Source of the DNA: Candidatus Borrarchaeum weybense
GTDB taxonomy: Archaea > Asgardarchaeota > Sifarchaeia > Borrarchaeales > Borrarchaeaceae
DNA: 64,000 nt
Assembly: GCA_019057385.1 (NCBI GenBank)
Contig: JAHQJS010000006.1
Location: forward strand, 837,038 to 901,037
Direction: 5' to 3'
Part shown: one piece after another, positions 35,091 to 36,689 of the stretch
Layout: every line of letters begins with the position of its first letter
How positions within the stretch are numbered: position 1 is the stretch's first letter
Program-made: the position numbers and the translations under genes
Notes under the pieces: generated by a model
Database searches by the model: none
Told to the model about the DNA's origin: nothing
Seen by the model: only the letters and a program-made list of their open reading frames with translations

Positions 35091-35560
35091 CCCCTGGTAG
35101 CTCAATCTGGTAGTATCCCTAGGTAATCCTAGGTGACCCCAAGAGCGGCGGGCTGTAGTTAGCATTCATGAAAATAAAGATGTATGAATGTCAGCCCTTA
35201 CGAGTAGCTAAGCAAGAAAGCATCAGTGCTTCAGCGTAGATGAATTGCGTGAGTATGGATTCACTTTCATCACTTATAGAGGAGTCCCCCTAATAGTTAT
35301 AAGGTGGTATGACAAAGAGAGTGACGGCAATTGGAGGGATAATACGCACACTTGTCTACAAGGTGCATACTCCGATGCCATCAAGATGGTTAACAGTACC
35401 TACGGGGCGTAGGGAATTTAAGCCTGTGGAGATACGACCTCCGTAACCCGTCAAGGGGATCGAGTCCGTCGTTGAAGCAGGAAGCCTCATTGCTTTAGCA
35501 CGAGGTAGCTCACTCGCAGATACCCGTTGGTTGCTGGTTCAAATCCGGCCCAGGGGACCA
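35091..35560 (+). tRNA. tRNA-Tyr(GTA) with two introns (D-loop, about 35113-35142; canonical 37/38, 35159-35521) and encoded CCA
   Basis: Spliced sequence CCCCTGGTAGCTCAATCTGGTAGAGCGGCGGGCTGTAG^ACCCGTTGGTTGCTGGTTCAAATCCGGCCCAGGGGACCA folds into a full cloverleaf: acceptor CCCCTGG/CCAGGGG, anticodon GTA at 35155-35157, T-arm GCTGG-TTCAAAT-CCGGC. Splice helix CTGT/GCAG with AG^T and AT^A bulges. Confidence 0.93.
35202..35513 (+). mobile_element. Family A IS200/IS605 omegaRNA mini-element inside the tRNA-Tyr anticodon-loop intron
   Basis: CTTAC|GAGTAGCTAAGCAAGAAAGC... left end and ...GAAGCAGGAAGCCTCATTGCTTTAGCACGAGGTAGCTCAC right end; colinear with the copy at 1724-2038. Confidence 0.92.
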
Positions 35561-35598: not shown

Positions 35599-35718
35599 CA
35601 TCTTAGTTTTAATCAGCCCTTTGCAAGCATCCTTTTTCAAGAGATTATAGAAAAAAACAATTTTTTTATACTCAGCTGTCTGTTATGAATATGAGTGACA
35701 AAAAGAGGTAATCTAAAA

Positions 35719-35976
35719 GTCAACTACCCCATCCTTACGGGTAGGGGCTTGTTCACACAAGTCTCTTAGTTGATTAGAGGGCATCTCATCTTGAGATGCA
35801 GCAGTTGTTTAGGTCATGACACCCTGGGGTGCTCCACTAGCCCCCTGCTCTGTCGTCGGTGGTTAAAAGTTCTGAGGGGTAGGAACGGTGCTGCCGACCT
35901 AATAAGCCTTTACAACAGTCTCGAAGTGGACCAACTCCCTAGTGTTGGGAGCGACGGGACTTGAGAGTACCCGTCA
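35719..35976 (+). ncRNA. HEARO / IscB omegaRNA scaffold
   Basis: GTCAACT...AGTTGAT closing stem, GTCATGACACCCTGGGGTGCTCCACTAGCCCC..GCTCTGTCG, GGTTAAAAGTTCTGAGGGGTAGGAACGGTG, CTCGAAGTGGA (complementary to TCCACT), terminal hairpins; recognised from memory of the HEARO consensus. Confidence 0.85.
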
Positions 35977-36079
35977 TTAAAACACCGCCTCCTGTCCTCA
36001 TAGAAGGGGTGGTTAAATGAACCTTCCCTTCTCTCCTCTCCGTCTTAATAAAGTGACGGAGTCTACTTGAGGTGTAAAA
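35719..36079 (+). mobile_element. Non-autonomous IscB-type IS200/IS605 element consisting of a stand-alone omegaRNA
   Basis: Begins GTCAACTACCCC-hairpin-GGGGCTTG; ends with a CTCCGTC..GACGGAG hairpin + TCTACTTGAGGTGTAAAA directly before ATGA; no iscB ORF. Confidence 0.8.
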
Positions 36080-36622
36080 ATGAGTTACTGCCCTTATTGT
36101 GGCGAAAGTATTAAGCCATCCGATTTACGTGACAATCAATGTCCTAACTGTGGTGCTTATTTGGATACTGAACCGCTCGCGACACCCCCAACACCCCCAA
36201 CACCTCCACTACCTCCACCATCACAGCCTACTACAACTTATGCCCCTCCCCCACCGCCAGCTGTCATCCCAAAAGCAGGTAGACCAATAGGAGTTAGTTT
36301 TATTGCTATTATAACTATCCTCGAAGGCATTGTATTTCTGGGTACTGGTGGAATTATTGCATTGGCGGGAGGAGTAGTAGATGAACTCTGGATTGCTGCA
36401 CTCGGTGTTTTTATCTTGATCTTTGGTCTAATCTTCATAGCGCTTGGGTCTGGTCTTTGGAATTTGCGGTCTTGGGCATGGTGGCTAACTATCATCTTTG
36501 AAATCCTTGGAATCATTGGCACTTTGATTTTAACATTAGCTATTGGAGCTGCCTTTATTCTGACTGTTATCTCAGCGATTGTCTTGGTATATCTGTTGAC
36601 AGTGAAGAAATACTTCCATTAA
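36080..36622 (+). CDS. Zinc-ribbon, proline-rich, four-TM membrane protein
   Basis: CPYCG..CPNCG, poly-Pro linker, RPIGV followed by TM helices, GLWNLRSWAW. Confidence 0.82.
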   Translation: MSYCPYCGESIKPSDLRDNQCPNCGAYLDTEPLATPPTPPTPPLPPPSQPTTTYAPPPPPAVIPKAGRPIGVSFIAIITILEGIVFLGTGGIIALAGGVVDELWIAALGVFILIFGLIFIALGSGLWNLRSWAWWLTIIFEILGIIGTLILTLAIGAAFILTVISAIVLVYLLTVKKYFH

Positions 36623-36689
36623 TCTTATTTTTTAAAAACGGTATCCTTTTTCTCAATTTTTTTTCAAGAATTCTGAAAGGAAATATTTT

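Follow-up and report, generated by a model that had tools for sequence, protein, structure and literature searches.

How can a guide-RNA element without a nuclease gene come to lie directly before the start codon of a gene, and how is that gene translated once its own leader has been moved away? This question is raised by a locus of the Asgard archaeon Candidatus Borrarchaeum weybense, lying within the 64-kb stretch of DNA analyzed here (64,000 nt, referred to as the window). The original prediction held that a stand-alone IscB omegaRNA had been inserted between a ribosome-binding site and its ATG and that it carried a replacement ribosome-binding site to the gene. In this study, the observation was confirmed, and the interpretation was supported wherever computation could test it.

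A stand-alone IscB omegaRNA element precedes the start codon

Positions 35719–35935 of the plus strand were matched by cmscan to the HEARO RNA (RF02033) over the whole model (positions 1–211) with a score of 128.3 bits vs. a gathering score of 83, bearing out the predicted omegaRNA, and this was the sole Rfam match within the window. The complete element, 35719–36079, is 361 nt long and carries no nuclease gene, a 64-aa TTG ORF being the only ORF that overlaps it. As the original prediction had stated, the 64-kb window has no iscB or tnpA: no RRXRR (IscB) or Y1 tnpA match fell inside it, and the closest iscB genes are located ~12 kb upstream of its start and 3 kb beyond its end. No tRNA was found in the window by ARAGORN. 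The copy is not directly 5′ of any iscB (RRXRR plus HNH) ORF and is thus a stand-alone derivative.

Four parts were distinguished, all read on the plus strand. The scaffold core, which is the HEARO match and the right end of the element in TnpA terms, is followed by a 3′ extension of the scaffold (35936–35989), delimited by BLAST and sibling alignment, containing a terminal hairpin at ~35953–35975 and common to stand-alone copies from other subfamilies. A linker replacing iscB (35990–36035), defined by alignment and folding, contains a predicted hairpin and is ~19 nt shorter than in sibling stand-alone copies. The last part, placed by family alignment, is the transposon end (36036–36079), which is the left end in TnpA terms when the bottom strand is read; it consists, in order, of a hairpin (stems 36038–36044 and 36055–36061), CTTG, GAGG (36069–36072) and a 7-nt spacer, and in the bottom-strand DNA fold the end hairpin lies 18 nt away from TCAT. 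The following ATGA (36080–36083, plus strand) is both the target site/TAM of the element, as seen from sibling copies and empty sites, and the start codon of the host gene (36080–36622, plus strand), an ORF of 180 aa with an N-terminal zinc ribbon (a weak match to Pfam Zn_ribbon_3), a proline-rich linker and a membrane domain.

Upstream of the element, a TATA-like box, which had been noticed near 35665, was located as TTTTTATA at 35663–35670 (plus strand) behind an A-rich tract and would serve as the promoter of the host gene. The host 5′ leader, which is the predicted omegaRNA guide segment, spans 35693–35718 on the same strand, its 5′ limit (35693) being set from the usual archaeal TATA-to-start distance. 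It holds the displaced native SD, GAGG at 35705–35708, which started at −14 before the insertion; the insertion parted the gene from its own leader and SD. In agreement with the original prediction, deletion of 35719–36079 joins GAGGTAATCTAAAA to ATGAGT, and the far end of the element reads CTTGAGGTGTAAAA before the ATGAGT that begins at 36080.

The element belongs to a family of ISC deletion derivatives

The source genome (4.18 Mb, 37% GC, 8 contigs) contains 36 HEARO matches, 28 of them above the gathering score. In 16 copies an RRXRR ORF of ~400 aa lies 28–75 nt downstream of HEARO, while the other 20 are stand-alone; HNH plus RRXRR domains were seen in the single iscB ORF scanned. A search for iscB outside the window, as had been suggested, thus yielded 16 genes.

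Four stand-alone siblings of the same subfamily align end to end with the window copy and have both ends in common with it, as the original prediction expected of other copies. In the alignment of the five, the left end reads G[T/C]CAACTACCCC and the flanks are unrelated; by this alignment the left end of the window copy, GTCAAC, was placed at 35719. The right end is composed of a hairpin, CTTGAGG, 7 variable bases and then ATGA in 5/5 copies (the window copy and the four siblings). The stems of the end hairpin vary among copies with pairing retained (CTCCGTC with GACGGAG vs. CTCCGCCC with GGGCTGGAG), and the subterminal hairpin of the family ends is ~18–19 nt from the cleavage site. The loop of this hairpin is 10 nt in the window copy and its orthologue, where it reads TTAATAAA, vs. 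4 nt in the siblings. Two further end types were found in full-length elements, ...CCAGAGGCGATTTCA/ATGA and ...CTTGCGGAGGTTAGATAAAA/ATGG (here and below, a slash marks a junction). The distance from CTTG (36066–36069) to the junction is 10 nt, which the original prediction had likened to its family A left ends; the spacing agrees with that of the co-resident TnpB family, which shares the end layout TTAC/N10/CAAG followed by a hairpin.

Past the Rfam region, stand-alone copies retain the common 3′ hairpin and the transposon end, with a short linker between them where iscB would be, indicating that they are deletion derivatives of ISC transposons, similar to PATEs or MITEs. Accordingly, 35719–36079 is a non-autonomous (PATE/MITE-like) ISC transposon derivative of the IscB branch of IS200/IS605 that has lost iscB. 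The genome has a single Y1 tnpA; it overlaps a tnpB of 427 aa within a classical IS605-type (TTAC-type) element (contig C7, 194191–195880). This tnpA is the one candidate for moving the 16 iscB and 20 stand-alone omegaRNA elements, which otherwise have none, and any present-day mobility of the ATGA family is putative.

At C4:705319–705994, a full-length iscB element comes ~30 nt past the type C end of a stand-alone omegaRNA element; in this tandem arrangement, the guide of the second element would be drawn from the sequence adjoining the end of the first. HEARO matches were present in 5/5 genomes of the genus and in 12/121 genomes of the phylum sample, the genus included, that is, in 7/116 outside the genus. 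These counts show that IscB/omegaRNA elements have expanded in this genus of Asgard archaea.

Another mobile sequence occurs close by. A separate repeat of ~316 nt at 35198–35514 of the window, a mini-element of the TnpB/TTAC family, lies 200 nt upstream of the IscB element. It has many copies in five genomes (G000, which is the source genome, G001, G002, G004, and G035) and is absent at this site in G002 and G004, being independently polymorphic.

Empty and occupied alleles coexist

Orthologs of the host gene were identified in two metagenome-assembled genomes of the same genus, 'Candidatus Borrarchaeum yapensis' (G004) and 'Promethearchaeota archaeon' (G002). G004 carries the empty site, ...gacaaaaagaggttatctaaaa/ATGAGTTACTGC, whose leader reads ...gaggttatctaaaa/ATGAGT; the join, TCTAAAA/ATGAGT, is exactly the AAAA/ATGA junction foreseen for an empty allele. 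G002 is occupied at the same place and has the same unusual terminus. Empty and occupied forms also coexist in nature, as seen in the sediment metagenome X3: a DNA contig of this sample passes directly from 35713 to 36075 (5 nt being ambiguous) and so lacks precisely 361 nt, and both junctions are spanned by others. Empty sites in three genomes of the same genus were also found for a second locus, C4:319852 (407 nt), where they read ...TTAAAA/ATGAGC at a gene start. At a third locus, C7:413670, which has a TnpB mini-element in its flank, no clear empty site was found.

These empty sites place the insertion directly 5′ of ATGA without a target-site duplication. TAAAA occurs twice at the window locus, in the left flank (35714–35718) and at the 3′ terminus of the element (36075–36079), so that the empty site by itself sets the boundaries only within 5 nt. 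A reading of TAAAA as a target-site duplication was rejected, as the repeat is absent in the siblings and at the second verified locus; the terminal hexamer before the ATG varies freely across copies in the genus. The left flank GAGGTAATCT resembles the right-end consensus of the family, and the candidate interpretation as a remnant of an older element end was also discarded: the ancestral flank (G002 and G004) has T at 35710, the remaining flank is unlike an element end, and the GAGGT within it is the SD core. The resemblance was treated as coincidence.

The host gene of the source genome is nearer to that of the empty G004 (94.7% nucleotide identity) than to that of the occupied G002 (89.1%), which makes the insertion history ambiguous. 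Either an ancestral insertion was followed by precise excision in the G004 line, or homing or transfer brought the element into one of the lines at a later time; both histories are compatible with peel-and-paste transposition plus RNA-guided retention.

Copies of the family abut start codons

The original prediction proposed counting the copies that abut start codons, and 12 of 36 did so. In detail, a recognizable end followed by [A/G]TG was found for 27 copies, and 12 of these directly adjoin an ORF of 100 aa or more, ~4-fold above intergenic chance. When the empty sites were rebuilt, the frames of the 12 abutted ORFs closed 0–19 codons upstream, and an SD-like motif was present in the displaced flank of 8/12. 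Of all [AG]TGA sites, 2.1% are at start codons, and of the start and intergenic sites combined, 9.8% are; with this latter share as the null and crude ORF-based gene calls, the binomial tail was ~1e-6 for 12/25 (an earlier junction count) and ~1e-4 for 12/36.

Two siblings lie in other arrangements around gene starts. The copy at C7:566612–566991 sits 14 nt before the start of a glycerol-kinase gene, and its ATGA target overlaps the apparent native SD (ATGAGGGG), so that here the element splits the leader from the SD rather than the SD from the ATG. The stand-alone copy at C4:1252930–1253329 abuts a 135-aa ORF, and at its target ATGA the start of this ORF overlaps the stop of the gene upstream (flank ...GGCATTCGATT/ATGAGTG).

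The element end carries an SD-like motif at the usual distance

The 3′ end of the 16S rRNA reads ...CACCUCCU or ...GGAUCACCUCCU and terminates in CCUCCU. Over 2389 long ORFs, GAGG before the first ATG peaked at −11 (132 genes) and −12 (93 genes) against a background of ~7, and such a sharp peak indicates that this archaeon uses SD sites. The GAGG of the element, complementary to the 16S rRNA 3′ end, starts at −11, which is the modal SD position of the genome. As a separate observation, the archaeal 16S rRNA match at C5:332567–335232 of the source genome is 2666 nt long vs. 1478 positions of the model, which implies insertions of ~1.2 kb (introns or mobile elements).

GAGG is present in all three end types, at −11 (A), −12 (B) and −14 (C), with differing surrounding bases. 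No GAGG-like motif was found in the equivalent linker of the co-resident TnpB family ends, so the motif is not demanded by the common end architecture. In a tally of family ends, GAGG was kept in 9/12 gene-abutting copies vs. 14/19 others; as a test of post-insertion selection this comparison is uninformative, the two groups showing no difference. Since copies without a gene retain the motif equally, its conservation may reflect the source element or a role in transposition rather than selection at each site.

RNA folding paired GAGGUG of the element (36069–36074) with CGCCUC (35986–35991) in a helix of 6 bp, with the linker and end hairpins lying between its two strands; according to the model, this helix could mask the SD of the element. 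The fold of 35985–36115 had a z-score of −3.8. One difference between the two occupied genomes falls in the helix (35987, G to A), changing G-U to A-U with pairing retained. In the alignment, the CGCCUC partner is absent from the sibling copies.

The host gene is conserved behind the element

The host gene is intact in the source genome, G002 and G004, with dN/dS of 0.13–0.19. For the occupied pair, dN/dS was 0.14 at a dS of 0.36, indicating that the gene has long been functional with the element in front of it; the gene is under purifying selection in the occupied lineages. Between the same two genomes the gene is 89% and its 5′ flank 92% identical, while the omegaRNA core (35719–35935) is 95.4%, its 3′ extension 96.3% and the transposon end 98% identical; the linker (89%) is the lowest among the parts of the element. 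The higher identity of the omegaRNA suggests either that the stand-alone guide RNA is constrained or that it is of more recent age. The TATA-like box with its A-rich neighborhood is conserved in the source genome, the occupied G002 and the empty G004.

Discussion

Taken as a whole, the locus is probably best explained as an iscB-less ISC derivative at a start codon, with an omegaRNA transcribed from the host promoter and an end that replaces the SD. The host promoter, from the TATA-like box at 35663–35670, would transcribe the short leader, then the omegaRNA, and then the gene. The old leader of 22–26 nt would act as guide, and IscB would be supplied in trans from the 16 iscB genes of the genome. 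The guide would recognize the empty allele before ATGA, by which retention or homing of the element would be favored, and the GAGG at −11 would stand in for the displaced native SD, making the insertion close to neutral for the host in this proposal. An ATGA target, an SD-like terminus and a need for transcription from outside could together have brought a third of the family copies to gene starts.

Several of these steps are interpretations of the sequence features. Transcription from the host promoter and use of the leader as guide are inferred from the layout of the locus, IscB binding and guided cleavage are the predicted role of the window omegaRNA, and GAGG is a putative working ribosome-binding site for the host gene. 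No T-run longer than 3 occurs within the element, so there is no obvious stop to archaeal transcription inside it. Metatranscriptome contigs, which stem from RNA libraries possibly containing DNA, cover parts of the gene (36091–36342 and 36345–36646) as well as other omegaRNA copies; none of them bridges a junction of the element, and uncovered parts are not evidence of absence.

The sequence was also weighed against a reading in which a genuine ISC mini-transposon has become an inert relic, its omegaRNA disused and its GAGG not a working ribosome-binding site, the gene being expressed in another manner, for example as a near-leaderless mRNA driven by the TATA-like TTAATAAA in the loop of the end hairpin (36045–36052) or by SD-independent initiation. 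The enlarged TATA-like hairpin loop, specific to the window copy and its G002 orthologue, and the position of this motif ~27 nt upstream of the ATG are consistent with such an origin of the mRNA, but the motif is not preceded by a purine-rich BRE-like tract. The predicted helix that masks GAGG points the same way, while GAGG starting exactly at the genomic mode of −11 argues for a site in use. An inert relic also agrees with the absence of an ATGA-type tnpA from the genome and with the RNA contigs, which cover parts of the gene only and among which no read-through transcript was found; however, the scaffold is 95–96% identical between species at a synonymous divergence of 0.36, and the omegaRNA scores as high as iscB-linked copies. 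On balance we regard an inert relic as unlikely.

Far less probable, in our estimation, is an exapted cis-regulator, in which the insertion now serves the membrane-protein gene as a structured 5′ UTR governing its translation, with the CGCCUC/GAGGUG helix hiding the SD and possibly being opened or closed by IscB binding. The z-score of −3.8 for 35985–36115, the placement of the SD within the 6-bp closing helix, and the turn from G-U to A-U at 35987 as the sole helix difference between the occupied genomes fit such a regulator, as does the element being more conserved than the gene. Yet its basis is one thermodynamic prediction and one compatible substitution, the siblings are without the CGCCUC partner, and the empty allele of G004 shows that such a leader is dispensable for the gene.

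A broader proposal is that ATGA-targeting ISC elements evolved a portable SD at their outward end as a strategy for docking at start codons; we advance it tentatively, with slightly less than even confidence. If it is true, landing at an ATG followed by A puts a guide-RNA scaffold behind a host promoter, with the short natural leader as a ready-made guide, and host translation is restored at once, so that insertions would be nearly cost-free and long-lived. It would also account for a third of all copies in this Asgard genus, and it predicts that in other prokaryotes using SD sites the ATGA-type ISC ends carry a motif tuned to the anti-SD and its spacing.

The locus shows in nature, to the base, how an RNA-guided transposon from the lineage ancestral to Cas9 can reside in the 5′ end of a gene at almost no cost, and alleles with the element, an allele without it and a polymorphic population are at hand. 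If the SD-supplying end is functional, it would explain both the strong bias to gene starts and why, as is known, these elements tend to lie in the direction in which upstream transcription runs, and it would provide a design rule for omegaRNA cassettes, namely a natural leader as guide with translation preserved.

Among known systems, ATGA or GTGA was reportedly noted next to HEARO elements in the HEARO paper of Weinberg and co-workers in 2009. Compared with the Rfam model RF02033, the window copy and 19 others have no ORF, and a 3′ extension and a transposon end are shared beyond the model. IStrons are IS605-type elements fused to a group I intron and are spliced out of the mRNA. They appear analogous in being IS200/IS605-type elements with a device that lowers the cost of insertion to the host gene; unlike an IStron, the window element would remain part of the mRNA, and the SD it supplies would let the gene be translated again.

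ISC transposons were described with 5′-GTCA termini and insertion at N/ATGA, verified by empty sites, and as related to PATEs, with ISC1-1_MA of Microcystis, ISC2-1_HM and ISC2-1_MS as examples of N/ATGA insertion (Kapitonov, Makarova and Koonin, 2016, PMC4810608). Similar to these, the present elements have a 5′-GTCA terminus and subterminal hairpins, insert 5′ of ATGA without target duplication as judged from empty orthologous sites, mostly lack tnpA, and have termini laid out as in co-resident TnpB elements. Unlike them, the window copy is without iscB and its host is an Asgard archaeon; start codons are mentioned 0 times in that study (PMC4810608) and no SD-like terminus is described there. 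IsrB cuts at an NTGA/ATGA TAM (PMC9581776, where the slash separates alternatives). In IscB elements the guide lies outside the transposon right end, 5′ of the scaffold, as the original prediction had assumed, and transcription from outside is needed; iscB elements tend to be oriented like the gene that precedes them, and omegaRNAs are often encoded by PATEs without protein genes (Meers et al., 2023, PMC10055086). The N/ATGA target and protein-less omegaRNA elements are therefore already published, and the idea is less new than the original prediction implied. No published SD-supplying IS605 or ISC end was found in the literature searched, and the single point that may be new is a conserved GAGG placed at the SD spacing most common in the host.

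In composition, there is also a likeness to the PATE-like ISGst elements of Geobacillus stearothermophilus (PMC10055086), which, like the window element, consist of transposon ends and a guide-RNA scaffold only; by analogy, the nuclease and TnpA would come in trans in both. The ISC family to which the window element belongs is known here from its sequence, and the window element differs from ISGst in its ATGA target, its position at a start codon, and its GAGG at SD distance.
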